From Candidatus Omnitrophica bacterium UBA6215 (GTDB taxonomy: Bacteria > Omnitrophota > Gorgyraeia > Pluralincolimonadales > Pluralincolimonadaceae): 64,000 nt of DNA. Shown one piece after another: positions 3,986 to 25,295 of this stretch. The position numbers and the translations under genes were made by a program. Location: NCBI GenBank assembly GCA_002421665.1, contig DISH01000003.1, positions 103,291-167,290 on the forward strand, in the 5' to 3' direction. Each line of letters begins with the position of its first letter. The stretch's first letter is position 1. The notes under the pieces are model-generated. The model was given only the letters and a program-made list of their open reading frames with translations, ran no database searches and had not been told where the DNA came from.

Positions 3986-5097
3986 TAAGCTACCTTTCGC
4001 AGGAACCCGCGAAAAAATATTCGCGGATAAAGAACATACTCTTTGGCGTTGAACTGGTTATAACGTTCCTCTTCCTGTATATCATGGCGACGCAGGGCCC
4101 GTCCATGTGGATAAGGAATTTCGCCGAGAGAGTCTCGGCAAATCCGTGGGTCTCAACGGCCGTATATTACCTGGTCTTCGGGGTGATATTCAGCGCGGTA
4201 ACCTTCACCCTCGATATGTACCAGGGCTACTCGATAGAGAAGAAGTTCTTGCTCTCAAACCAGAGCTTATTCGGATGGTTCAAGGACTATCTCAAAAAGC
4301 TCCTGCTCAGCGGAGTGATATTCTTCATACTTGTAGAGATGCTATACTTCTTCCTCAGGCGTTCCGATACCTGCTGGTGGGTGTGGATGGCGATCTTCTG
4401 GGTGCTGTTTACAGTCGTGCTCAGCAGGGTGGCCCCCGTGGTGATATTGCCGCTTTTTTTCAAGGTCAAGCAGGTCAATGACGAGGACCTGAAGTCACGC
4501 GTCCTGGGCCTGGCCGCGAAATGCGGCGCCCGGGTAAACGGCGTATACGAGATAGACCTGAGCTCCAAGACGGTTAAAGCGAACGCCGCGCTCGCAGGCC
4601 TTGGCAGGACAAGGAGGATACTCCTTGGGGATACCCTGCTCAAGGAATATTCGCATGAGGAGATAGAGGCGGTCCTGGCCCATGAACTGGGCCACCACAG
4701 GCGCGGGCACATCATGAAGATACTGGTATTCGGGGCCCTTACGGCTTTCGCGGGTTTTTACTTAGCAGGGACGGCATACGAGAAGCTCTCGAGCGCCATA
4801 GGTTTACGCGGGATATCCGACCTTGCGGGCCTGCCGCTGCTTTCCCTGATATTTTCCGCCTTCGCCATCGTGATGATGCCGATCCAGAACGGCCTTAGCA
4901 GGGCCTTCGAGAGGCAGGCGGACCGTTTTGCCCTGGAGATAACACAGAACCCGGATGCTTTCATATCCATGATGAGCAAACTCGGCTCCCAGAACCTCGC
5001 GGACAAGGAACCGGGACGTTTTGAGGAGATATTCCTGTACGACCACCCGCCCATCGGCAAGAGGATAGCCATGGCGGAGGAGTTCAAGAGGCGTTAG
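3982..5097 (+). CDS. M48 family zinc metallopeptidase (HtpX/Ste24-like) with N-terminal TM helices
   Basis: HELGHHRRGH (HExxH) zinc motif with multiple N-terminal hydrophobic helices. The in-frame ATG at 3982 was chosen to avoid a long overlap with the upstream gene. Confidence 0.75.
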   Translation: MISYLSQEPAKKYSRIKNILFGVELVITFLFLYIMATQGPSMWIRNFAERVSANPWVSTAVYYLVFGVIFSAVTFTLDMYQGYSIEKKFLLSNQSLFGWFKDYLKKLLLSGVIFFILVEMLYFFLRRSDTCWWVWMAIFWVLFTVVLSRVAPVVILPLFFKVKQVNDEDLKSRVLGLAAKCGARVNGVYEIDLSSKTVKANAALAGLGRTRRILLGDTLLKEYSHEEIEAVLAHELGHHRRGHIMKILVFGALTAFAGFYLAGTAYEKLSSAIGLRGISDLAGLPLLSLIFSAFAIVMMPIQNGLSRAFERQADRFALEITQNPDAFISMMSKLGSQNLADKEPGRFEEIFLYDHPPIGKRIAMAEEFKRR

Positions 5098-7893: not shown

Positions 7894-8664
7894 ATGAATA
7901 AATGGATTAAGAAAAGTATAGAAATTGCAAATAGTCCTGGCTACTTAGATAAGCTGGGAAAGATTTATGTTATGAATATGAATCCCGAGCGCCCTCTCGA
8001 TGGCGGTATAGAACGCTCTATTCGCGAAGCCTTCAATAATCACGATACCAAGACGTTAATAAAATTGCTTCTGGAAGCAGAAGTTTTCCCCGTTAAGGAT
8101 TCTTATATAGGATTTATTAGAGCAGATGAAAAGGCAATCGATCAAAATCCCGAGACAGTAGAAAGAATAGGGGATCGTTTGTATGGATTAGGGTTAGAGA
8201 AACTTATTCAAGAAGCGACGCGCCCCAAGGAAACAAACAGGCAATTAGGAAGTTCCTTTCGCAGTTGGCTTCCTTCTTTGGTGTACCCGATACTGGAAGA
8301 GGATGAATTTACTAAAGCTAAAGGCATAGCTTTTTTAGCTGGGAGCGACAAGGCACTTAAAGATTACGCAGTTAAACATCTTGGTTGTAGGCTAACCAAG
8401 GGGATAGATGTTTTATTCAAAAAAGACGATATTTATGTAATTGGCGAAGCGAAATTTTTGACTACGCCTGGAGGCGAACAAGACCGCGGTTTTGACGATG
8501 CATCGAAGTTCATTAAAAGTAGATCTGGTAGGGCAAAGAGGATCGCTTTAATAGACGGTTATATTTGGCTTAAAACAAATAAAGGGCTTCATAGCAAAAT
8601 CGTGAAGAGTAATTTAGATATATTCAGCGCTTTGCTATTAAAAGACTTTATAGAAGTACTTTAG
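7894..8664 (+). CDS. Putative type II restriction endonuclease (PD-(D/E)XK fold)
   Basis: 256 aa. IDVLFKKDDIYVIGEAKF fits a D...(E)xK catalytic core. Convergent with the adjacent DNA methyltransferase and overlaps it by 17 nt. Confidence 0.5.
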   Translation: MNKWIKKSIEIANSPGYLDKLGKIYVMNMNPERPLDGGIERSIREAFNNHDTKTLIKLLLEAEVFPVKDSYIGFIRADEKAIDQNPETVERIGDRLYGLGLEKLIQEATRPKETNRQLGSSFRSWLPSLVYPILEEDEFTKAKGIAFLAGSDKALKDYAVKHLGCRLTKGIDVLFKKDDIYVIGEAKFLTTPGGEQDRGFDDASKFIKSRSGRAKRIALIDGYIWLKTNKGLHSKIVKSNLDIFSALLLKDFIEVL

Positions 8665-10447
8665 CCGTTTTATAAAAAGAAAAAGAAGGGGGGCTTTTAA
8701 ATAAGTCTTGTTTTTGATTTAAGTTGGATAATTTTTCTTCCGCAGTTTTTATTGCAGACTCATTAGAATCAATACCAATCCAACCTCGATTTAATTCTTC
8801 CGCCGCAATGAGAGTAGTGCCAGAACCGCAAAAACAATCTAAGATTAAATCTCCTTCTCTCGAAGAGCACAGGATAATCTGTTTTAACAATTCTTCATTT
8901 TTTTCTGTTGGATAAGTCTCACTAACAAATCCCGGATCTCTGAAATCCCAAATATCTTGAATCTTTTTTCCTTTATTCTCATCAGCATAGATTATTTTTC
9001 TTGGGTTATTAGTTTCTGACCATTCAATTAAACCTAATTTATCTAATCTGGTAAGCTCGGCAGGCGGATAGCGCCAGTGTCTTCCCTTAGGTGGCTTTAA
9101 TTCCTTCCAAGGCTGTCCTGTAGGGCCATTTTTAGTTTCCCCTTTTGCATGCAATGGAGTAGTAGCATAGCGTCTACCTTGCTTATCTATTTTTGGGAAT
9201 TGTTTTTCTATTTCTTCCTCAGAAAGCGTTAATCTATAATCAGACCAATACATAGGATCGTTTCCGTTGGGTTTAGATTTGGAGTAGTAATAAATAACAT
9301 CTTTTATGTTGCCATATGCTTTACGTTCAAAATTCTTAGGATTACATTTTATACGTGTTATGTCATTTCGGAAATTTTCTTCTCCAAACACTTCATCCAT
9401 AATAATTTTTATGTAATGACCTATTTTTTGATCTATATGAAGATATATACTGCCATCTTCGGATAATAATTCGCGGAGAAAAACAAGTCGTTTTCTTAGA
9501 AATTCTAGAAATTCTGTATTAATAAGCTTATCGCTGTAGGATTTTTCTTCTTCGTACCCTACAAATTCCTGTCCAGTGCCGAAGGGCGGATCTATATAAA
9601 TGAGATTAACCTTCCCTTTTATGTCTGGATCATCATAAAAATTTTTTAGTATTCCAAGATTATCACCTAGCATAAGTGCATTTTTTGTTTTAGGATTCGG
9701 ACCATACCTTTTAATAAATTTTAATTCAGCAGATGAAGTTTCAAATAAAATTTGTTCTCTTGTTTGCTTACCGGGATACAAAAGCTCACATCCACCTTTT
9801 GGCCTCTTTTCTTTTGGTATAGTATGATTAACTCGTTCTAGTGTTTCTTCTCGAATTGCAGATTTAATTACATCCGTAACTATTCCCTGAATTATCAATT
9901 CATCTGGTTTAACGAATATCGGCTGTAGCCTAGAATTTGCTGGCTGGAGTCTAATCTTACCTCTTTCCTTATAGAATTGTTTTAACGTTGCCTCTGTGTT
10001 GTTTATGAGAGCGACCACCTTCTGCCCGTTTTCAGCAGTTACCTGTTTTTTGACAAGAATAATATCTCCATCGTTAATATTTTCATCTATCATACTTTTT
10101 CCAACTACTTGTAGAGCGAAATAATTATTACCGGTTTTAATTTTATCCTGAGGAACTGCTATACTTTCTCTATCTTCGATTGCCTCAATTGGAGTACCGG
10201 CTGCTATTCGTCCCAAAAGAGGTATTTGGACTAGCTTCTGTTTCGCAAAGACATCAAGCGCTCGCGGTTGATTTTCTTCCTTTCTTAAATAGCCCATACT
10301 TTGTAAAGCTTGGACGTGATAGTGAGCTGTAGAAACAGAAGAGAGGTGAAGATGTTTTTTGATTTCTTCTAAGGAAGGGGCGAAATCATGTTTATCTATG
10401 TAGGTTCTTATAAAATCTAGTACTTGTTTTTGGCGTTTTGTAAGCAT
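8648..10447 (-). CDS. LexA-like repressor (wHTH + S24 autopeptidase) fused in frame to a beta-class N6A/N4C DNA methyltransferase
   Basis: 599 aa. Residues 1-~225 align with LexA: LTKRQKQVLDFI wHTH, IPLLGRIAAGTPIEA with an Ala-Gly cleavage site, VVGKSM catalytic Ser, TLKQF catalytic Lys. Residues ~230-599 carry methyltransferase motif IV IYIDPPFGTG followed by motif I LDCFCGSGTT (beta-class order). No stop codon lies between the two parts. Confidence 0.75.
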   Translation of the reverse strand: MLTKRQKQVLDFIRTYIDKHDFAPSLEEIKKHLHLSSVSTAHYHVQALQSMGYLRKEENQPRALDVFAKQKLVQIPLLGRIAAGTPIEAIEDRESIAVPQDKIKTGNNYFALQVVGKSMIDENINDGDIILVKKQVTAENGQKVVALINNTEATLKQFYKERGKIRLQPANSRLQPIFVKPDELIIQGIVTDVIKSAIREETLERVNHTIPKEKRPKGGCELLYPGKQTREQILFETSSAELKFIKRYGPNPKTKNALMLGDNLGILKNFYDDPDIKGKVNLIYIDPPFGTGQEFVGYEEEKSYSDKLINTEFLEFLRKRLVFLRELLSEDGSIYLHIDQKIGHYIKIIMDEVFGEENFRNDITRIKCNPKNFERKAYGNIKDVIYYYSKSKPNGNDPMYWSDYRLTLSEEEIEKQFPKIDKQGRRYATTPLHAKGETKNGPTGQPWKELKPPKGRHWRYPPAELTRLDKLGLIEWSETNNPRKIIYADENKGKKIQDIWDFRDPGFVSETYPTEKNEELLKQIILCSSREGDLILDCFCGSGTTLIAAEELNRGWIGIDSNESAIKTAEEKLSNLNQKQDLFKSPPSFSFYKTAKVLL

Positions 10448-10591
10448 TTTAGTTAATATATCTTCTCGCTTGACTTTCGATTTATTTTCGATTATACTAT
10501 ACTCGCGCTAGAAGTCAAGAAAATTCTTAGAAGTTCGTTTCTTGGCAGAGGTAACTGTAAACAACCATAGTTTTTAGGAAGGTAGATTGTT
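10448..10591. promoter_or_regulatory. Divergent promoter/operator region between the LexA-MTase and patatin genes
   Basis: Minus strand: TTGACT - 16/17 nt - TATAAT reads into lexA-MTase. Plus strand: TTGACT - 17 nt - TATACT reads into patatin. The region also has direct repeats TTTCGATT x2 and TAGAAGT x2, which are candidate operators. Confidence 0.45.
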
Positions 10592-11641
10592 ATGGATAAT
10601 TCAAGTAACGCTAGAAACGGCATAGGGTTAGCGCTATCAGGGGGTGGTAGCAGAGCTATAGCATTTCATTATGGTGTTCTTGAAGCGCTCCATGATTTTG
10701 AAATAGACAAAAAAATTAAAGTAGTGTCAGCTATCTCTGGAGGGGCCGTCATCGCTGCTTTATGGACTGTCCATTCTGATGATTGGGACTTATTTACAAA
10801 GAATATAGAGTTGGTATTGGACAAGGGGCTCGAAGGAACAATTTTTAAGAAACTAAAGCATCCGCTCGTTCTATTACAGCAGTTATTCCATTTAGGAATA
10901 GACTCTGGCTTACTTGCGGAAGCCTTGGATGAGCTAGTTTTGAATGGTAAAAAACTTAAAGAATTGCCAGAAAATCCAACCCTTATTTTAAACGCTACTG
11001 ATTTACGCACGGGTAGCAACTTTAAGTTTAGCAAATCAGTGTGTGGATCACATAAGGATGGCGGTAGCGACCTCTGTGACATGCGACTAAGCGATGCCGT
11101 AGCCTGTTCAGCCGCTTACCCGCTGTGTTTTAAGGCTAAGAAGATACGAATGGATAACGGTAAAGATGTATTTCTAACAGATGGCGGATCGTACGATTGT
11201 TTAGGGGCTAATGCATTAATGCCCGATAAAGATGAGGGAATATCAATATTGATCCAAAACTGTGAGACTATTATTACAAGCGATGCCTCGGCTCCATTTT
11301 TAGAAGACAGGAAATATTTAGGAAGGTCTATAGGTGATGCACTGTACTCGTCTTATTTAACCTGCGCTAAGAGGACACGCTCTTTGATATATAACAAAAT
11401 GTATCACCTTAAAGAAATCGGAGAGATACCCTATTTAGGTACAATCAAAATGGACAGCAAACACCCAGACGTAACCGCTAGTTGGAGTAAAGCAGATTTA
11501 GAGTTTGTAAATGGTTATAAGACTAATTTCAAGCCAGTTACTGGAAAGGCTGCCACCTATCTCAAGAAGCGCGGTAAAGAATCGGCAGAAATAATAGTAA
11601 AAAAATATTTACCACACTTAGTTACAAATAAACAGCTATAA
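10592..11641 (+). CDS. Patatin-like phospholipase
   Basis: 349 aa. Oxyanion motif LSGGGSRAIA, GxSxG nucleophile AISGGAV, catalytic Asp in LTDGGSYD. Confidence 0.85.
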   Translation: MDNSSNARNGIGLALSGGGSRAIAFHYGVLEALHDFEIDKKIKVVSAISGGAVIAALWTVHSDDWDLFTKNIELVLDKGLEGTIFKKLKHPLVLLQQLFHLGIDSGLLAEALDELVLNGKKLKELPENPTLILNATDLRTGSNFKFSKSVCGSHKDGGSDLCDMRLSDAVACSAAYPLCFKAKKIRMDNGKDVFLTDGGSYDCLGANALMPDKDEGISILIQNCETIITSDASAPFLEDRKYLGRSIGDALYSSYLTCAKRTRSLIYNKMYHLKEIGEIPYLGTIKMDSKHPDVTASWSKADLEFVNGYKTNFKPVTGKAATYLKKRGKESAEIIVKKYLPHLVTNKQL

Positions 11642-11654
11642 GGAGGAAAATAAA

Positions 11655-12737
11655 ATGGCTAACAAGGCGCAGGAGATTCTAATACCTGGTGAGGGTGTAT
11701 TTCGTACAGTATTTCTTAATGTCGGCCAAGGCGATTCTACTCTTTTAATCATTCCTGATGGAACAGGACATAAATACGTATTAACTGATTCCCATCAGGA
11801 TGATAAAAAGGGAAGCATTGATATAATTAAATTACTAGAAGATCTTCTTGAGGGACAGAAGAGAAAGCTAGATATCTACATCAATACTCATCCCCACAAA
11901 GATCATCTTGGAAAAGTCAAAGAAATGTATGAAAATAAAAAAATTGGCATAAAACAAGTTTGGCATTCCGGGCATAAACCTGGCGGTGATCACAAGGATG
12001 CATATAAAGACCTAGAATACGTTATGGAAAAGGTTGGAAAAGAAAATGTTTTTCAACTTAAAGGTAGCCGTGAAGATAACAAGTTAGATGATAAAGAAGT
12101 TAAGCTGGGAGATATAAGCTTTAATATTTTAGCACCCGCCGATTATGTTACCGATGAAATTGAAGATGAAAAACCTGAAGATAGATACCATAGGATTCAT
12201 GAGCAATGCGGAGTGATTCGATTTAAGTATGGCAAAAAAGAAAAGCAAATATTATTAACCGGCGATGCAGATTACGATGCCTGGACAAAGCATATCACCG
12301 ATTATCATAAAGACAGGCTTCCTGCACACGTCTTGAGCGCGGTTCATCATGGTTCAAATACTTTTTTTTGGAAAGGCGATCCGAAAGACGAAGATCCATA
12401 TACTGAACATTTAGATAAAATTGATCCTAAGCTTATAGTTGTTAGTGCTCCAGCGCGAAAAGATAGCCCACACGGCCATCCCGATAAGGAAGCGATGGGT
12501 CTGTATGAGGACAAGGTCGGTAAAGATAACCTCAAGCATCTAGGGGACAAGCCAAAATGCATAATAGTTGATATAGATAGTGAAGGAAATATTGATATCC
12601 AAGAAGATTATGAGCTAATTAAAGAATACCCCTCAGGGGACGACAATAAAGATGAAGATAAAGAAAATGGTGGGCAAAGTGCATCTGTGATATATAGCTC
12701 AAAGAAACAACCTTCTAAACCGTGGCTTAACGGTTAA
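11655..12737 (+). CDS. Metallo-beta-lactamase fold hydrolase, ComEC-C-terminal-like
   Basis: 360 aa. VGQGDSTLLI ... INTHPHKDHLG (HxHxDH) ... LLTGDAD motifs. Strong AAGGAGGA RBS. Starts 13 nt after the patatin stop. Confidence 0.75.
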   Translation: MANKAQEILIPGEGVFRTVFLNVGQGDSTLLIIPDGTGHKYVLTDSHQDDKKGSIDIIKLLEDLLEGQKRKLDIYINTHPHKDHLGKVKEMYENKKIGIKQVWHSGHKPGGDHKDAYKDLEYVMEKVGKENVFQLKGSREDNKLDDKEVKLGDISFNILAPADYVTDEIEDEKPEDRYHRIHEQCGVIRFKYGKKEKQILLTGDADYDAWTKHITDYHKDRLPAHVLSAVHHGSNTFFWKGDPKDEDPYTEHLDKIDPKLIVVSAPARKDSPHGHPDKEAMGLYEDKVGKDNLKHLGDKPKCIIVDIDSEGNIDIQEDYELIKEYPSGDDNKDEDKENGGQSASVIYSSKKQPSKPWLNG

Positions 12738-12738
12738 A

Positions 12739-13518
12739 ATGTGGCTGTCAGAAAATGATAAAAAATGGATAGAAACCAATTATCCAAATCTTCAAATCGT
12801 AGAAAAACAAGGGACACAAGAAGTAAGAGGACCTCTTAGTTTTTGTATGAGTTACGATAAGCATGATCAGAGTCGTGTTATCTTAACGAATAAAAATTAT
12901 AAAAGGGGTATTGTAATATGCGATAAATATGATATCGAAATTGTTTTCACAAGGGCGATTTATCTGCCAATGGTGCGTGAGACGGGGGGCCGGTTTGAAG
13001 AAATAAGACAGCAAAAGAAAATATCAGATATTCGAGATTTGCATATCTGTAAAAGTAAATGGGATGGTAAAGATGGGTGGGCATGCATGTGCTCAAGACT
13101 TGAAGAGCAAATTAGACTACCACCCGGAAGCTCGATAGATATTTTCTTTTATGAATTATTAATCCCATTTTTTTATGCACAAAGTTATTTTTCGGACTAT
13201 GGTAAATATCCGTGGGGCACCTATAGCCATGGAGCATTTGGAATAATTGAGAGCTACATGCAATTAAGGGGAGGCAAAGGAAAAGAATTTGCTAAGGCTT
13301 GTGTAACTGAACTTATGAAAGAAAAAAAGGGTAAAGGGGGCGAAGAAGCTAAAAAATGTATAGAGTTATTAAAAAGAAAGAAAATAAGAAGACACTGGCC
13401 TTGTATATGTGATAATCCAACCGAAAGATTTTATATATGTCATCCCAAAATATTTGCGGGATTGAGGAGTTTGAAAAAAGACATTAGAAAATATAATATG
13501 AAAAAATATTTGATTTAA
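12739..13518 (+). CDS. Hypothetical Cys-rich protein, third gene of the patatin/MBL cassette
   Basis: 259 aa. Starts 1 nt after the MBL stop. Cys motifs WACMCSRL, HWPCICDNP, YICHP. No confident family assignment. Confidence 0.6.
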   Translation: MWLSENDKKWIETNYPNLQIVEKQGTQEVRGPLSFCMSYDKHDQSRVILTNKNYKRGIVICDKYDIEIVFTRAIYLPMVRETGGRFEEIRQQKKISDIRDLHICKSKWDGKDGWACMCSRLEEQIRLPPGSSIDIFFYELLIPFFYAQSYFSDYGKYPWGTYSHGAFGIIESYMQLRGGKGKEFAKACVTELMKEKKGKGGEEAKKCIELLKRKKIRRHWPCICDNPTERFYICHPKIFAGLRSLKKDIRKYNMKKYLI

Positions 13519-20728: not shown

Positions 20729-21604
20729 ATGTCAAAATTCGAATTCAACTCTAAAAAAACCGATTTCGATCTATTAAATGCCCTTTGTATGGCCGAAAGT
20801 TCCCAGTTAGCCTATAAATCGGAGGCTGAAGTAAAGGAATTCCTTAACGCTAAGTGGGGGATATCAAGAATCAATACCTTTGACAAAGACGAAACCCAGG
20901 CGCTTCTTTGCTCAAATGATGAAGTGGCAATTTTAGCTTTCCGAGGAACGGATTCATTGAAAGATTGGCAGAAAGATTTTAATGCTGTACTTGTCGATTC
21001 AAAAGTAGGCCATATTCACAAGGGTTTTAAGCAGGCTCTAGATAATATATGGGAAAAGATCGACACAGCTCTTGCAGAACATATCAGGGAGGATAGATTG
21101 TTGTGGGTTACAGGCCATAGCCTAGGCGGGGCGCTAGCTACCCTTGCAGTTGACCGACTTACGGATTCCAAAATTCCCATTGGGGGAATGTATACGTTTG
21201 GAGGACCAATGGTAGGGGATGAAAAATTCGCTGATAATTTCGATCGTAAAATAAAAGAACACAGTTTCCGTTTTGTAAATGATGAGGATATAGTAACCTG
21301 GATTTCTTTGCCTGCTTTTTATCATCATATTGGGATCGAGTGCTTTTTTGATTGCGCAGGAGTTCTTCATCGAAAGCATGTATGGTATCACAAGCTTCTA
21401 AGCTATTCAGATAATGCCGAGGTGCGTTCCAGGCCAGAATTAGATAAATTAAAGGCGCAATATCCCAACGGCATTCAAGACCATAGTCTGGATTACTATA
21501 TTAAGTACCTCAAGAAGAATTTATTAGCCGAAAATCCTCCCGAACCGGAACAGAGGACATTTAAGGATTATGCAAATAGACTATTCAGAAAAGGAATTTC
21601 CTGA
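20729..21604 (+). CDS. Class 3 lipase (Lipase_3, alpha/beta hydrolase)
   Basis: 291 aa. ILAFRGTDSLKDW ... WVTGHSLGGALATL (GHSLG nucleophile elbow). Confidence 0.8.
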   Translation: MSKFEFNSKKTDFDLLNALCMAESSQLAYKSEAEVKEFLNAKWGISRINTFDKDETQALLCSNDEVAILAFRGTDSLKDWQKDFNAVLVDSKVGHIHKGFKQALDNIWEKIDTALAEHIREDRLLWVTGHSLGGALATLAVDRLTDSKIPIGGMYTFGGPMVGDEKFADNFDRKIKEHSFRFVNDEDIVTWISLPAFYHHIGIECFFDCAGVLHRKHVWYHKLLSYSDNAEVRSRPELDKLKAQYPNGIQDHSLDYYIKYLKKNLLAENPPEPEQRTFKDYANRLFRKGIS

Positions 21605-22668
21605 TGCGGCAGATAGCGGTCGAAACGAAATACCTCTTCTTAAGGCGCTTAAGTAGGCCAATAATTTTATTTCTTATCGTAGGTTTCTTCTTACTTCCAC
21701 GCGCTGCAATTTCAAATGACAATGTATGTCTCTCGTTAAAAAACCAGATCCGCCTTGGTTCTTTCAACATCGAAAAATTAGGCAAGGATAACTCTTTCCA
21801 AGCCAAAAACGCTGCCATAATACTTAAAAATTACGATATCGTAGCCATCCAGGAGGTTATGAACGCCGGCGCCAAGAAAAACAGCCCTATCGGCACAAAA
21901 GGCACCGATGCCCTAAAACAAATAGTAGCTTACCTTGGCGATGACTGGGCGTACGTGATAAGCCCGGTGCCTAACGGCACTTTGAGCGCAACAAATAGCA
22001 AGGCGTTCCATACATTTGAGTATTACGCCTTCATTTATAGAAAATCGAAGGTTGAGCTTATCCCGAATAGCGCCCATCTTTGGGATGAATCCAAGAATCC
22101 CATGCCGGGGTCAGATGATCAGAGCAGGCAATTCGACAGGCAGCCCTTTATAGCCTCTTTTAAGGCCAAGAATGGCAACCTCGACTTTACTTTAATAACA
22201 ATCCATGCGGCCGAACCTAAGGCCAAATGGCGCAAAGACGAGATAAGGCGCCTAAAGATCGTCTATGAGAAAGTCCAAAACGAAGATCCTGACCAGAATG
22301 ATGTTTTTCTAATGGGGGATTTTAATACAAATGTCGATAAGCCCGAATGGGATGATTTAAAGAGTATCCCAACCATGAAGCATATCCTTACTTCGAAAGA
22401 TATAACGACTTTAAATAAGAAAGAAGGGAAACTTTCAAACAGCCAATATGATACCATATGGTACCAGGGCAAATACAGTGATGAAGACATTGTCTCCGAC
22501 TCAGCGCAAATTGACCAGGCTTGGAAGGACTCGCTTGATATCCCCAATGTTAAGCCTAAAATAAACAGCAGCGATAAGGATCGTAAACTCATATGGTATT
22601 ACGGGAAGTATGCCTCTGACCATCTTCCCGTAACGGTTATTTTATGGACGGGAAAAGATACGGATTAA
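21604..22668 (+). CDS. Endonuclease/exonuclease/phosphatase (EEP, DNase I-like) family protein with N-terminal signal/TM anchor
   Basis: 354 aa. N-terminal hydrophobic segment PIILFLIVGFFLLP. EEP motifs IVAIQEV, LMGDFN, SDHLPV. ATGA start/stop overlap with the lipase gene. Confidence 0.75.
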   Translation: MRQIAVETKYLFLRRLSRPIILFLIVGFFLLPRAAISNDNVCLSLKNQIRLGSFNIEKLGKDNSFQAKNAAIILKNYDIVAIQEVMNAGAKKNSPIGTKGTDALKQIVAYLGDDWAYVISPVPNGTLSATNSKAFHTFEYYAFIYRKSKVELIPNSAHLWDESKNPMPGSDDQSRQFDRQPFIASFKAKNGNLDFTLITIHAAEPKAKWRKDEIRRLKIVYEKVQNEDPDQNDVFLMGDFNTNVDKPEWDDLKSIPTMKHILTSKDITTLNKKEGKLSNSQYDTIWYQGKYSDEDIVSDSAQIDQAWKDSLDIPNVKPKINSSDKDRKLIWYYGKYASDHLPVTVILWTGKDTD

Positions 22669-22693: not shown

Positions 22694-23926
22694 ATGAAAA
22701 TACAAAATACCCTTAATAATATTTTTGATCAATATGATGTGGAAGAAAATAGAGTTACAAATTCTTTTCTTCAAACATTGACACGTAATCCAGATTTATT
22801 AAAGGAGTTTCTCTTCAAATATTTCAAGATTAGAATCGGCAGAAGTTCTAATGTCGAAATTAGCTCTCAAAAAGAACCTTTTTCTTCAGGAGATATTAAG
22901 GAAGTAAAAGAAAAGGTTGAAGGCATTCCCGATGGGTGGATAATAATAGATGATGCTATTGCCGTAGTGTTCGAATCTAAAATTTACAGAGATGCAATAA
23001 AACAGAGCCAATTGCTAGCTCATATAAAACGAATAAAAGGATATTCACAGAAATATTTATGCGTAATTACACCAGATGAAGAATCTCCTCTAAATGGTAT
23101 AGATATTGCGAATGTCAAGATTCAGTGGATCCCTTGGCGGGAAATTTATAGTCTAGTATCCAAGAATAAAGAGACTCAGAGCATTTCAGGTTATTTACGG
23201 AATCAATTAAAGGAGTATTTAGCCATGAAAGAAGATTTAGTGGGTTTTCAAGGCATAAATTATCCATCAGGAACATTTAATTCTAGGGAAGCGAAAATTA
23301 TTATCAAGAGCTTAATACGAGAAATCAAGCCGTATATTCAAAAATTTTATCCGGACCTAAAATATGAGAGAAAATCATATTCTCAGGATGTTCATCCATA
23401 CACAGTCTTCCATCGGAATACATGGTCTTTTCTAGGGACGAACGAGAATTTTACGAAGGATATACATATGACTTTTTGGTTGGCTGAAACCCATATGGGA
23501 ATAGGTCTGACTATTCCGAACGGCGCCGGGAAAAGATGGAAGAGATTGCGAAAAATATTTAAATCCGACGGCCTTTTTTATTCATTTATAGAAAAGTTGA
23601 ACATCTTGCGAGATAAAATGCCTAATCTTTATCTTGAATTCGTCCATAGACATTATCTAGGGCAGAGGGATGGCATTATCGATGGAATACTGGAAATGGA
23701 TTTGGATACCGTAAGGGGCAGAAAAGGGGTAAAAGCAAACAAGAGATGGTTAGAGGTATTAAGGGAGCTTGTTAAAAATAAAAAGGGATATAACGGCCAG
23801 CTAATGTTAAGAGTAAGATACTTTTATAAAGATTACTCCGAAATGCAAACGTCGGCCTTTAAGAATTTAGTAGTTGATACCGCTCACAAATTTAAGGATA
23901 TTTATAATTATTTAGTTGAAGAGTAA
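22694..23926 (+). CDS. Hypothetical protein with N-terminal PD-(D/E)XK-like nuclease core
   Basis: 410 aa. IPDGWIIIDDAIAVVFESKIY fits D...ExK. The rest is unassigned. Confidence 0.5.
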   Translation: MKIQNTLNNIFDQYDVEENRVTNSFLQTLTRNPDLLKEFLFKYFKIRIGRSSNVEISSQKEPFSSGDIKEVKEKVEGIPDGWIIIDDAIAVVFESKIYRDAIKQSQLLAHIKRIKGYSQKYLCVITPDEESPLNGIDIANVKIQWIPWREIYSLVSKNKETQSISGYLRNQLKEYLAMKEDLVGFQGINYPSGTFNSREAKIIIKSLIREIKPYIQKFYPDLKYERKSYSQDVHPYTVFHRNTWSFLGTNENFTKDIHMTFWLAETHMGIGLTIPNGAGKRWKRLRKIFKSDGLFYSFIEKLNILRDKMPNLYLEFVHRHYLGQRDGIIDGILEMDLDTVRGRKGVKANKRWLEVLRELVKNKKGYNGQLMLRVRYFYKDYSEMQTSAFKNLVVDTAHKFKDIYNYLVEE

Positions 23927-23953
23927 AATAGGAAAATAATTTAGAGGCCAAAA

Positions 23954-24814
23954 ATGGATAAAAAGAAAGATATCCCTTACGAAAAAGTCATAAAAGACTT
24001 AACTAGCATAACCGATAAATTTAAAGAAGTTAGTTGTTTTAAGAAAAAAGAGATAGAAGATATCGAACAGACGCGCAGACAACTAGATATTGTAAAGGAT
24101 TACTGGAAGGCAAATCCAAATCCACCTTCATCGTTAGCATATGCCACGCTTACCTCGGCGGCAAGCTATATTCATGAATTCAAAAGCTATGTCAACCACA
24201 TTGGTCCTTCAGAATTTACGGGTTCGCTTTTGGGAACCGCAATTAGTTCCGGCGATTCGATAGTGGCAACTGGCATGACCCTTTCGTATATCGCTCCAAC
24301 TAATGATGAGGCCGTTAAAAAAAAGTTAGAAGTTAAATTTGTTGAAATAAAAGAAGCTCCCAGAAGAAAAAACCGCAGAAAGGAAATCAAAAGATATCTT
24401 AAAAAATTATCCCCTCATTTGGCTTCTGCCTATGAAGGAGCATGGGAAAATCTCGAAACAAATTTTAGCGATTCGGAAAGAGGGGCTGCTTTTCTTATGA
24501 GAGAAGTGGTGTCGCAAGTTTTAGATATTTTAGCTCCAAAAGAGGCAATTAAAACATCAGATTTTATTCCTGACCCAACAGCAAAAGACGGTGTTACTCG
24601 AAAACATAGGTTAGAATACATAGCAACCCATAAGGCAAAAGGCAGTTTTAGCAAGGAATTATTAGATAGAAGTATTCAGGGTTTCTTGGATACTTACGAA
24701 GGTTTAAACGATGCCCATAAGAGAACTTTTCTTGATAAATCAAAAATAGAAAGTTTTTTATTTCAAGCCGATGATTTATTGCATACGCTTTTTAATTCGG
24801 TAATAATCGATTAA
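23954..24814 (+). CDS. Hypothetical protein
   Basis: 286-aa ORF with RBS-like AGAGG upstream. No recognisable family. Sits immediately upstream of the HNH gene. Confidence 0.5.
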   Translation: MDKKKDIPYEKVIKDLTSITDKFKEVSCFKKKEIEDIEQTRRQLDIVKDYWKANPNPPSSLAYATLTSAASYIHEFKSYVNHIGPSEFTGSLLGTAISSGDSIVATGMTLSYIAPTNDEAVKKKLEVKFVEIKEAPRRKNRRKEIKRYLKKLSPHLASAYEGAWENLETNFSDSERGAAFLMREVVSQVLDILAPKEAIKTSDFIPDPTAKDGVTRKHRLEYIATHKAKGSFSKELLDRSIQGFLDTYEGLNDAHKRTFLDKSKIESFLFQADDLLHTLFNSVIID

Positions 24815-24830
24815 ATTAGAGAGACAATTA

Positions 24831-25295
24831 ATGCCAGAATACACATCATCATATGCAAAAAATATAATAAAACGATCTCTACGAGAAATTATCGACCCTG
24901 GTCCTAGTAAGAAAGAAAAGCAAACAATCTGGGATTATTTTGGTTCGGAATGTGCTTATTGTGGTAAGAGACTACATAAAGGGCGTAGAGAAGGGCATAT
25001 TGATCATTTAGTTCCTAATGGTGCTAACCAGCTTTATAATCGGGTACTATCTTGCAAGGAATGCAACGGAGATGAGAAACGCGATAAATCCTGGAAGAGG
25101 TTTCTGGCGCAAAAGCGCTCGAATGTAAAGATCAAAGCCAAAAGAAAAGCGAAAATATTGCAGTGGCAAAAAAGGCATAAAAAGCCTATTTTTAGAAAAG
25201 GCGTTCTATCTAAAGTAGAATCTCTCCAGGATAATGTAATATCGTATTATGAGAGAAATGTAGAGAAGGCGAGAAGACTGCGAAACAAAAGGTAA
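24831..25295 (+). CDS. HNH endonuclease
   Basis: 154 aa. CAYCG ... HIDHLVP ... CKECN HNH/zinc-finger motif. Confidence 0.75.
   Translation: MPEYTSSYAKNIIKRSLREIIDPGPSKKEKQTIWDYFGSECAYCGKRLHKGRREGHIDHLVPNGANQLYNRVLSCKECNGDEKRDKSWKRFLAQKRSNVKIKAKRKAKILQWQKRHKKPIFRKGVLSKVESLQDNVISYYERNVEKARRLRNKR

Follow-up and report, generated by a model that had tools for sequence, protein, structure and literature searches.

A patatin–MBL–E2 operon from an Omnitrophota genome as a candidate hybrid of the E2-CBASS and 6A-MBL immune systems

The subject of this work is a trio of genes found in a 64,000-nucleotide (nt) stretch of contig DISH01000003.1 from Candidatus Omnitrophica bacterium UBA6215; this whole stretch is called here the window, and its numbering is used for all coordinates of the trio and its surroundings. 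The trio codes for a patatin-like phospholipase, a ComEC-like hydrolase of the metallo-beta-lactamase (MBL) fold and a single ubiquitin-conjugating (E2) enzyme. On balance, it is rather likely that these genes constitute a three-gene anti-phage operon of the abortive-infection type, which would be an evolutionary hybrid of two kinds of bacterial immune system: E2-CBASS (the E2 type of CBASS, the anti-phage signaling system based on cyclic oligonucleotides) and 6A-MBL. One piece of this proposal is the C-terminal tail of the MBL, which is homologous to the tails of cyclases (CD-NTases, cGAS/DncV-like nucleotidyltransferases) that are partnered by the same family of E2s.

Both presumed parents have been described before. 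E2-CBASS corresponds to type II-short CBASS and is exemplified by the CdnG–E2 pair of Serratia marcescens (PDB 8hsb; Xiao et al., 2026, PMC12948482). In this system, a single E2 works in the absence of any E1: it clips the C-terminal extension of CdnG and forms a Cys-linked and then a Lys-linked adduct. The formation of this adduct regulates the cyclase, and protection against T4 by the system has been shown (PMC12948482). The 6A-MBL system goes back to row 6a in Table 1 of Iyer, Burroughs & Aravind (2006), where an E2-E1-JAB protein appears with a "specialized" MBL in operons described as "usually two genes". It is cited as a validated anti-phage system in two further sources (PMC13276650; bioRxiv 10.1101/2025.09.30.679545), and it has been classed together with type II CBASS and Pycsar among the pathways using fused E2-E1. 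The make-up of 6A-MBL is taken here from the 2006 study, from the names of the NCBIfam models (NF058523/NF058524) and from secondary citations.

Gene Organization and Products

Open reading frames were recomputed, and they agree in position and in their 13- and 1-nt gaps with those of an earlier reading of the sequence (hereafter the original prediction). The three frames, all on the + strand, are 10592-11641 (349 amino acids, aa), 11655-12737 (360 aa) and 12739-13518 (259 aa), with 13 nt between patatin and MBL and 1 nt between MBL and E2. The features of the operon are the following:

10592..11641, + strand: gene 1, patatin-like phospholipase, 349 aa, predicted membrane-degrading effector (Pfam Patatin)
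11655..12641, + strand: gene 2, catalytic core, aa 1-329, ComEC-like MBL-fold hydrolase (alignment, AlphaFold, Foldseek)
12642..12737, + strand: gene 2, disordered C-terminal tail, aa 330-360, ending in GGQSASVIYSSKKQPSKPWLNG before the stop codon, predicted E2-recognition/conjugation tail (model, homology)
12739..13518, + strand: gene 3, stand-alone UBC-fold E2, 259 aa, C-terminal SEC-C zinc knuckle (fold, PADLOC, profile matches)
10470..10498, + strand: sigma70-like promoter of the trio, TTGACT-17-TATACT (10/12 consensus match)
10518-10491, - strand: divergent promoter-like site for a LexA-methyltransferase gene (11/12), overlapping the trio promoter

Promoters were called by consensus match only, and the region has no more of these sites than shuffles do; the two sites listed are the best-scoring ones and are correctly placed within the 144-nt intergenic region. 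A scan found no terminator-like site inside the trio, and no internal promoter of note either. Tight spacing, an upstream promoter and the lack of an internal terminator-like site bear out the operon that had been postulated. Strong ribosome-binding sites had been claimed for all three genes, which is right for gene 1 (AGGAAGG) and gene 2 (AAGGAGG); for gene 3, a Shine-Dalgarno sequence was looked for and none is evident. Since the ATG of gene 3 sits 1 nt past the MBL stop (TAAaATG), the E2 gene is likely translated by coupling to the MBL. Some gene callers choose a later start for gene 3 (223 aa), but the N-terminus encoded from 12739 aligns with homologues and includes the residues W10, Y15 and L18, which are invariant in alignment A2. 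The trio has a GC content of 0.376, compared with 0.53-0.54 in the flanks and the genome, and it is found, identical and in the same context, on 16 contigs from several public samples. A look-up in public sources returned no name for any of the three proteins.

Gene 1 matches Pfam Patatin (PF01734) at 5.2e-19 (69.6 bits, cutoff 27.7). The features of this family are all present: the oxyanion loop GGGSR (residues 17-21), the nucleophile S49 within AISGG (47-51) and the catalytic D197 within TDGG (196-199), with Ala replacing the first Gly of the G-x-S-x-G motif. S49 aligns with S142 of ExoU. The nearest relative considered is the patatin of a related locus, L011, which is 79% identical and occupies the same operon position. 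Patatins used as defense effectors, such as CapV of CBASS and the anti-phage phospholipase DS2_1 of NCBIfam, resemble the gene 1 product in their patatin fold, GGGxR oxyanion loop, Ser-Asp dyad and effector position within the operon. They differ from it in the nucleophile motif (G-x-S-x-G instead of A-x-S-x-G), and its profile matches to such effectors are weak and partial (PADLOC phospholipase effector, 2e-6 over aa 163-199; NF053870, 6e-6). The patatin is a plausible membrane-attacking effector, as had been suggested, and gene 1 is predicted to act by degrading the membrane.

Gene 2 had been read as a ComEC-like MBL hydrolase, and this assignment holds. Its HxHxDH motif is intact (H79-P-H81-K-D83-H84), further His/Asp residues are invariant across 35 homologues (alignment A1), and ComEC/Rec2 TIGR00361 matches at 4e-8; Pfam Lactamase_B gives a weak match below its cutoff (8e-4). 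The AlphaFold model of the core (predicted local distance difference test, pLDDT, 83.7; predicted template modeling score, pTM, 0.85) has as its best Foldseek match the beta-lactamase-like domain of ComEC (9ic4, E 7e-17), followed by phosphocholine esterase, beta-CASP RNases and phosphodiesterases. Homology searches gave 622 matches, the best 120 of them at 56-80% identity; at the level of 50%-identity clusters the family is compact, with 48 representatives at E <= 1e-30. The window MBL is 50-66% identical to MBLs adjoining E2-E1-JAB fusions, with values of 63-66% for the fusion-linked MBLs compared when its family membership was assessed, and 80% identical to the L011 MBL. Its score against the NCBIfam model 6A-MBL_enzyme (NF058524) is 61.6 bits for a cutoff of 220, so it is placed in the same broad family and not in the curated equivalog. 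Weak matches to PADLOC LmuA/PDC-M48B and to Avs1a-type MBLs were also obtained, and none of the three trio proteins gives a SMODS or DncV match in Pfam, PADLOC or NCBIfam. As a separate observation, nine representatives of the MBL family (P0248, P0251, P0252, P0270, P0280, P0281, P0286, P0289 and P0290; 406-500 aa) have a C-terminal domain of ~100-150 aa instead of the linker and tail, with the common motif W-x-V-x-N-x-G ... Y-x-G-x-H-[WLIY]-x-x-C.

Gene 3, which resembled nothing recognizable in the original prediction, can be placed: it codes for a single E2 with the UBC fold, belongs to the E2-CBASS type and carries a SEC-C zinc knuckle. It is not a fragment of a housekeeping enzyme, the alternative raised there. 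The protein has the N-terminal helix, the 4-stranded antiparallel sheet and the loop with the catalytic Cys ~10-15 residues after an HPN-type His that define the fold. Its invariant residues are R85, H102, C116 (the catalytic Cys candidate) and H164, and it is, as in E2-CBASS, a stand-alone E2 with a conserved catalytic-type Cys and without E1 or JAB. The SEC-C (PF02810) knuckle, C222-I-C224-x9-C234-H235, fits the motif C-x-C-x(8-10)-C-[CH] and is invariant or nearly so. The profile of the E2 family (~174 detectable members) matches the SecA SEC-C peptides 1ozb and 1tm6 (9e-4 to 2e-3), and E2 homologues are flagged PF02810 or annotated as "SEC-C domain-containing protein". The Cys motifs quoted earlier are present at aa 114-118 (WACMC), 219-224 (HWPCIC) and 233-236 (ICHP). 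The zinc binding proposed for them fits the C-terminal cluster (C222, C224, C234, H235), but not WACMC, which holds the catalytic-type Cys116 and whose C118 is not invariant. A derivation of gene 3 from the E2 domain of a 6A fusion was considered and rejected, the E2 hidden Markov model (HMM) having 0 matches in 53 fusions.

The MBL Tail and the E2 as a Cassette

Residues 330-360 of the MBL are predicted to be disordered (AlphaFold pLDDT <50). The end of this segment, SASVIYSSKKQPSKPWLNG, is nearly identical to the end of the CD-NTase encoded at locus L101, TASVLYSSSKTPAKPWLR. The local alignment of the two proteins scores 89, compared with 20.3+-4.4 for shuffles (0/5000 reaching it), and nothing aligns between them beyond the tails. 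This type of ending is general among the partner enzymes of single E2s, be they MBLs or CD-NTases: in 12/12 independent loci they finish with a short hydrophobic strand, P-x-K-[PQA]-[WHY]-[LCSF] and 1-11 variable residues. MBLs paired with E2-E1-JAB end differently: in 103 of the 120 best clusters, a low-complexity linker leads to [KR]-[ILV]-D-x-K-P-M-G plus 0-3 residues, an end that is expected of a C-terminus adenylated and conjugated after trimming. Among these 120 clusters, K-P-W tails occur solely in the window (KPWLNG) and in P0009.

Comparison with L011 locates the place where tail and E2 appear to have been exchanged. From the patatin start to approximately codon 339 of the MBL (window 10595-12671, 2.08 kb), both loci share an unbroken nucleotide similarity of 76%. 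Past 12671, just before the tail, this similarity vanishes; the tails differ, and the E2s are only 33% identical. Because of the tail homology, this break in similarity and the failure of the E2 profile to match 6A fusions, the simplest reading is that tail and single E2 together form a cassette of E2-CBASS origin, grafted onto an MBL core of the 6A type, and that both are functionally coupled.

Neighborhoods of Related Operons

Nine contexts were sampled through the E2 itself: eight of them are effector–CD-NTase–E2 operons, and one has a 4-transmembrane (4-TM) protein, an MBL and an E2. The E2-CBASS contexts usually lie behind divergent CapH/CapP-like (helix-turn-helix, HTH, plus M78 peptidase) or LexA/S24 repressors, beside restriction-modification (RM) systems or integrases. 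The E2 nearest in sequence to that of the window (44% identity, L101) belongs to a patatin–CD-NTase–E2 operon behind CapH/CapP, in which a cyclase stands where the window has the MBL. The original prediction had regarded the MBL as a second effector-type fold; with its CD-NTase slot and its predicted E2-recognition tail, it probably holds the place of the conjugated enzyme.

MBL contexts were examined in 80 metagenome loci and in loci fetched earlier, with our own ORF calling and HMMs. Among 68 non-redundant loci with an identified partner, the MBL is accompanied by a ThiF + Prok-JAB fusion of ~780-800 aa in 63 and by a single E2 in 5 (the window, the L011 group, the L002 group, L081 and L099). 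The distance from the MBL stop to the start of the fusion gene is -4 to +4 nt, and the fusion matches NCBIfam 6A-MBL_cap2_3 at 7e-42, below cutoff. This MBL and fusion pair corresponds to row 6a of Iyer et al. (2006). A sixth example of an MBL with a single E2 is carried by the conjugative plasmid pRUNSL03 of Runella slithyformis DSM 19594; its gene order is MBL, SEC-C/E2 and 4-TM protein, the accessions for this operon are WP_013921736, WP_169705258 and WP_013921738, its MBL tail ends in KPWQRG, and the operon adjoins a dcm/MvaI-type RM system. In this plasmid (L111, NC_015694.1 33700-43062), the operon is followed by a further pair of MBL-fold genes and by a gene for a very large "serine protease", possibly AVAST type 1-like, so that a single defense island of the plasmid holds three different MBL-fold proteins.

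The component upstream of the MBL is usually a membrane protein. A 4-TM protein (~190-250 aa) is encoded directly upstream of the MBL in 53 non-redundant loci. In 11 others, a gene of the same family lies at another place of the locus, in most cases immediately behind the fusion gene, which makes 64 of ~74 loci with a linked 4-TM gene; these totals include a second 4-TM family in the upstream slot of 4 fetched loci. In the window and in L011, the slot is taken by a patatin, and in 8 loci no membrane protein is linked. A membrane-targeting protein is therefore near-constant as the third component, and the window has swapped in a phospholipase for it, in the manner of the modular effector exchange of CBASS. 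The 4-TM family has weak similarity to Csx27; its identity with the small TM effectors of E2-CBASS was tried and rejected (hhalign probability 0.1).

The conservation of the trio, for which a neighborhood search had been recommended, is confirmed in that the trio recurs, but in only one related element (L011/L012/L021). In L011 (336-4841), the patatin and MBL genes overlap by 8 nt, the tail is KPWCQ, upstream of the patatin comes an additional gene for an Avs1a-like MBL (363 aa), and behind the E2 one for a TM protein of 172 aa. In the L002 relative, the E2 is followed by a weakly SLATT-like protein of 182 aa.

Proposed Mechanism and Alternative Explanations

The scheme that follows starts from what the data contain, namely the gene structure, the folds, the conserved catalytic residues, the synteny, the tail homology and the cassette swap. 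Conjugation, its trigger and, above all, the link from MBL to patatin are inferred. The trio would be transcribed from its own promoter, perhaps held down by the divergent LexA-domain protein, a suggestion of little weight. The E2 would bind the disordered MBL tail and act on the MBL through C116, as proposed from the homology of fold, operon layout and tail with the Serratia E2-CBASS; Cys116, together with H102, H164 and R85, would clip the tail and form a thioester, as expected from CdnG-E2. An isopeptide-linked MBL~E2 or poly-MBL adduct would then arise, by the same homology, without any E1. This conjugation may prime or regulate the phosphodiesterase/nuclease activity of the MBL, which would be triggered during infection. 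In the least certain step, MBL activity would lead to activation of the patatin, by a small-molecule or oligonucleotide product or by direct contact. The activated patatin would finally degrade the membrane and kill the infected cell.

Several observations weigh against this interpretation. In the published CdnG tails, the residue at the conjugation site is a conserved Gly (PMC12948482), and the tails of the single-E2 family have L, C, S or F where KPMG has its Gly; a Gly two residues later ends the window and Runella tails, but not the other single-E2 tails. Since the aligned Gly is missing, the conjugation chemistry of this family may differ from that of the published E2-CBASS. At the sequence level, no match links the E2 to the solved Serratia E2 (SmE2), the relation being drawn from the fold and the PADLOC profiles. 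BLAST finds no similarity between the window patatin and the CapV-like patatin of L101, and the exact patatin–MBL–E2 trio is known from two elements, which are mutually related. Against the NCBIfam 6A-MBL models, the scores stay far short of the equivalog cutoffs, as indicated above. Moreover, because no cyclase is present, there is no known ligand for patatin activation, and the description of 6A operons as usually two-gene would make the MBL itself the effector and not an upstream signal-maker.

The role of the MBL is the point at which explanations diverge most. In one wiring, the MBL would be the functional equivalent of the CBASS cyclase: triggered by infection and primed by the E2, it would make or destroy a diffusible (oligo)nucleotide signal by hydrolysis and so switch interchangeable membrane effectors. 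The near-universal linkage to a membrane effector and the CD-NTase-like position of the MBL favor a wiring of this kind, in which the MBL makes or removes a small signal; the full reading as a cyclase equivalent is tentative and somewhat unlikely. In the other, the MBL would be the terminal effector, a ComEC-like DNase/RNase licensed by E2 conjugation, with the patatin or 4-TM protein as an auxiliary, an independent second effector or an anchor; we regard this as possible but rather doubtful. It is favored by the ComEC-like fold (the nuclease domain of ComEC is the closest solved structure, and beta-CASP RNases and phosphodiesterases come next) and by the two-gene make-up (MBL plus E2-E1-JAB fusion) that Iyer et al. 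(2006) gave for most 6A operons. NCBIfam has just two 6A-MBL component models, implying that the MBL can suffice, no membrane protein is linked in 8 of ~74 loci, and MBL domains serve as effectors elsewhere (weak matches to LmuA/PDC-M48B and the Avs1a type). Against a terminal-effector MBL, a membrane-targeting protein is linked in ~89% of the loci of this MBL subfamily, the variable slot is the effector slot, as in CBASS (4-TM family A, 4-TM family B or patatin), and the MBL has the position and tail of a signal-producing CD-NTase, not those of CBASS effectors.

Two further explanations concern the unity and the purpose of the trio. The three genes might not be one unit; the patatin would then work on its own as an effector or toxin of the mobile element, and the system would consist of MBL and E2 only. 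This is improbable: the fact that the patatin accompanies MBL and E2 in just two related elements, the use of a 4-TM protein in the other single-E2 MBL loci and the different subfamily of the CapV-like CBASS patatin speak for it, whereas the 13-nt gap, the strong Shine-Dalgarno sequence, the lack of a notable internal promoter or terminator and the 8-nt overlap in L011 tie the patatin to the MBL. Both proteins are, besides, co-conserved (79% and 80%) in one uninterrupted 2.08-kb block of similarity, and the patatin sits in the effector slot of E2-CBASS (including patatin–CD-NTase–E2) and in the 4-TM slot of MBL operons. A non-defense role of the trio for the element, in lysis or host takeover, as an addiction module or in a DNA-uptake-related (ComEC-like) function, could be suspected from the element's large terminase, ParB-methyltransferase, exonuclease and HNH genes and from the resemblance of the MBL to the ComEC nuclease domain. 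Such a role is very improbable given that the MBL is a soluble 360-aa protein without ComEC channel or competence domain, that profile scans of IMG/VR viral contigs found no member of the MBL or E2 families (phage genomes have distant MBLs only), that homologous operons lie beside RM systems, integrases and the CapH/CapP regulators typical of immune operons, and that both parental system types are reported to be anti-phage.

The Mobile Island and Adjoining Genes

The trio lies within a low-GC island of ~25 kb (~5400-30000, GC 0.34-0.46) that starts beside tRNA-Val/tRNA-Asp. According to Pfam and PHROG, the island codes for a large serine recombinase, DUF2924, a Tsp45I-type restriction endonuclease, a LexA-S24-methyltransferase fusion, a phage-type PD-(D/E)XK exonuclease, a ParB-methyltransferase, a large terminase (TerL), a sigma/HTH small-terminase-like protein, a class-3 lipase, an EEP nuclease, a protein with a pPIWI-associated nuclease domain and an HNH nuclease. 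The same scans detected no capsid, portal or tail genes, and an Rfam scan found tRNAs only. No convincing att-type direct repeats bound the island, which is to be expected of a serine recombinase. The island looks satellite-like or like a degraded phage, packed with nuclease and lipase genes. The defense-island context that had been invoked for the trio is well founded on the Tsp45I-type endonuclease and its methyltransferase, the serine recombinase, the tRNA-Asp border and the low GC content. The supposed Cas4-like neighbor, by contrast, is the phage-type PD-(D/E)XK exonuclease (phrog_69), which is not conserved with the trio; being absent from L011, this downstream gene was rejected as a fourth component. 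The genes on the other side of the trio are:

7894-8664, + strand: Tsp45I-family restriction endonuclease, converging on the LexA-methyltransferase fusion with a 17-nt overlap
8648..10447, - strand: LexA (DNA-binding domain)-S24 peptidase-N6/N4 methyltransferase fusion, 599 aa, divergent from the trio (Pfam LexA_DNA_bind 4e-18, Peptidase_S24 2e-30, N6_N4_Mtase 5e-48)

Together these two genes (7894-10447) make up a type II RM pair with an unusual methyltransferase, the fusion. Related E2 operons have stand-alone LexA/S24 repressors or CapH/CapP pairs in the same divergent position as this fusion. The similarity of its LexA module to the L001 repressor is generic (28% identity), as it is to E2-CBASS repressors in general, and a regulatory role for the fusion is therefore speculative; it is a candidate for a regulator that responds to DNA damage and acts on the promoter region shared with the trio, and its membership in the trio system is uncertain. 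The fusion keeps an A-G cleavage-site-like IAAGTP, the Ser in GKSM and the Lys in TLKQF, and a LexA-type autoproteolytic module on an RM methylase could couple DNA damage to the expression of RM or defense genes. The promoter region of the L001 E2-CBASS (4392-4525) contains a perfect 13-bp palindrome, AGAACTAGTCAAG-N7-CTTGACTAGTTCT. The half-sites CTTGACT / AGTCAAG are found again in the window (10469-10519), but 35 bp apart and on the -35 boxes of both divergent promoters; they may be operators for LexA-like proteins.

Two other gene groups of the island deserve mention. At 20729-22668, a class-3 lipase (291 aa, GHSLGG) is followed, with stop/start overlap, by an EEP-family protein (354 aa) with an N-terminal hydrophobic segment, a second tightly coupled lipase and nuclease pair in the island and a possible effector or defense module. 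At 22694-25295, one run of genes codes for a 410-aa protein without family match, a 286-aa protein with a pPIWI-associating nuclease domain (PF18165, 2e-19) and a 154-aa HNH protein; no Argonaute gene was noticed near this run.

Significance

Ubiquitin-like conjugation regulates bacterial immunity in type II CBASS, Bil and Bub. For the MBL branch of conjugation-regulated immunity, no mechanistic characterization was found in the accessible literature. The occurrence of the same E2 family and tail on an unrelated hydrolase suggests, at the sequence level, that the E1-independent single-E2 mechanism is not limited to cGAS-like cyclases, and the joint movement of tail and E2 gives a direct handle on substrate recognition by these enzymes. 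As the MBL operons almost always carry a linked, patatin-exchangeable membrane protein, the MBL can be placed upstream of a membrane-killing effector, which raises the question of which signal a hydrolase could send to it. If the MBL were indeed equivalent to a cyclase, the operon would stand for an immune pathway that uses a second messenger but lacks a nucleotidyltransferase, and the C-terminal tail with its single E2 would be a portable regulatory cassette for unrelated enzymes. If it were only a conjugation-licensed nuclease, the locus would still be a new subtype for catalogues of defense systems. The pathway is experimentally testable, since the cultured Runella slithyformis DSM 19594 has, on pRUNSL03, a version with MBL, single E2 and 4-TM protein.

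Comparison with Known Systems

Type II CBASS with Cap2 (E2-E1) and Cap3 (JAB) was reportedly described by Ledvina in 2023 and Jenson in 2023, and E2-CBASS is said to be the subject of a 2024 study by Yan et al. For the 6A-MBL system, a 2024 report by van den Berg et al. is said to describe anti-phage activity in P. aeruginosa. The window trio shares with E2-CBASS the layout of effector, enzyme with C-terminal tail and single E2, including a cell-killing type of effector directly upstream (the patatin, in the same order as in L101), and its tail is homologous to the CD-NTase tails of this E2 family. It differs from E2-CBASS in the middle gene, an MBL-fold hydrolase instead of a CD-NTase, which excludes the known way of making a cyclic-oligonucleotide signal; the locus is therefore not a CBASS. 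The E2 family of the window is also larger (230-260 aa, compared with ~160), with an extra helical region and the SEC-C zinc knuckle, and its partner tails are without the aligned Gly. The relation to the longer type II CBASS with Cap2 and Cap3 is more distant, since the window has no adenylating E1, no deconjugating JAB and no cyclase. In Bil and Bub, a separate ubiquitin-like protein is encoded with an E1 and a peptidase; the window has no gene for such a protein, and what is predicted to be conjugated is the tail of the enzyme itself.

The likeness to 6A-MBL resides in the MBL core, which is of the same broad "specialized MBL" family, and in the same design of disordered linker plus tail; the regulatory logic, a ubiquitin-like conjugation module acting on the MBL C-terminus, would be shared as well. 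The window MBL is partnered, however, by a stand-alone E2 of another lineage, E1 (ThiF) and JAB domains being absent; its tail is K-P-W-L-N-G and not K-P-M-G(+0-3), and a patatin replaces the 4-TM protein. The KPMG(+0-3) tail is a 6A-MBL feature derived from the present alignments and not from the literature. With no E2-E1-JAB fusion, no KPMG tail and scores far below the NCBIfam cutoffs, the locus is not a curated 6A-MBL. Neither MBL plus single E2 nor patatin plus MBL plus E2 is described in PADLOC, NCBIfam or the searchable literature, an earlier mention being possible in key papers that were inaccessible. The original view of the trio as an undescribed system thus stands for the exact combination, which carries no name in these sources, but the components themselves come from two kinds of system already described, 6A-MBL and E2-CBASS.

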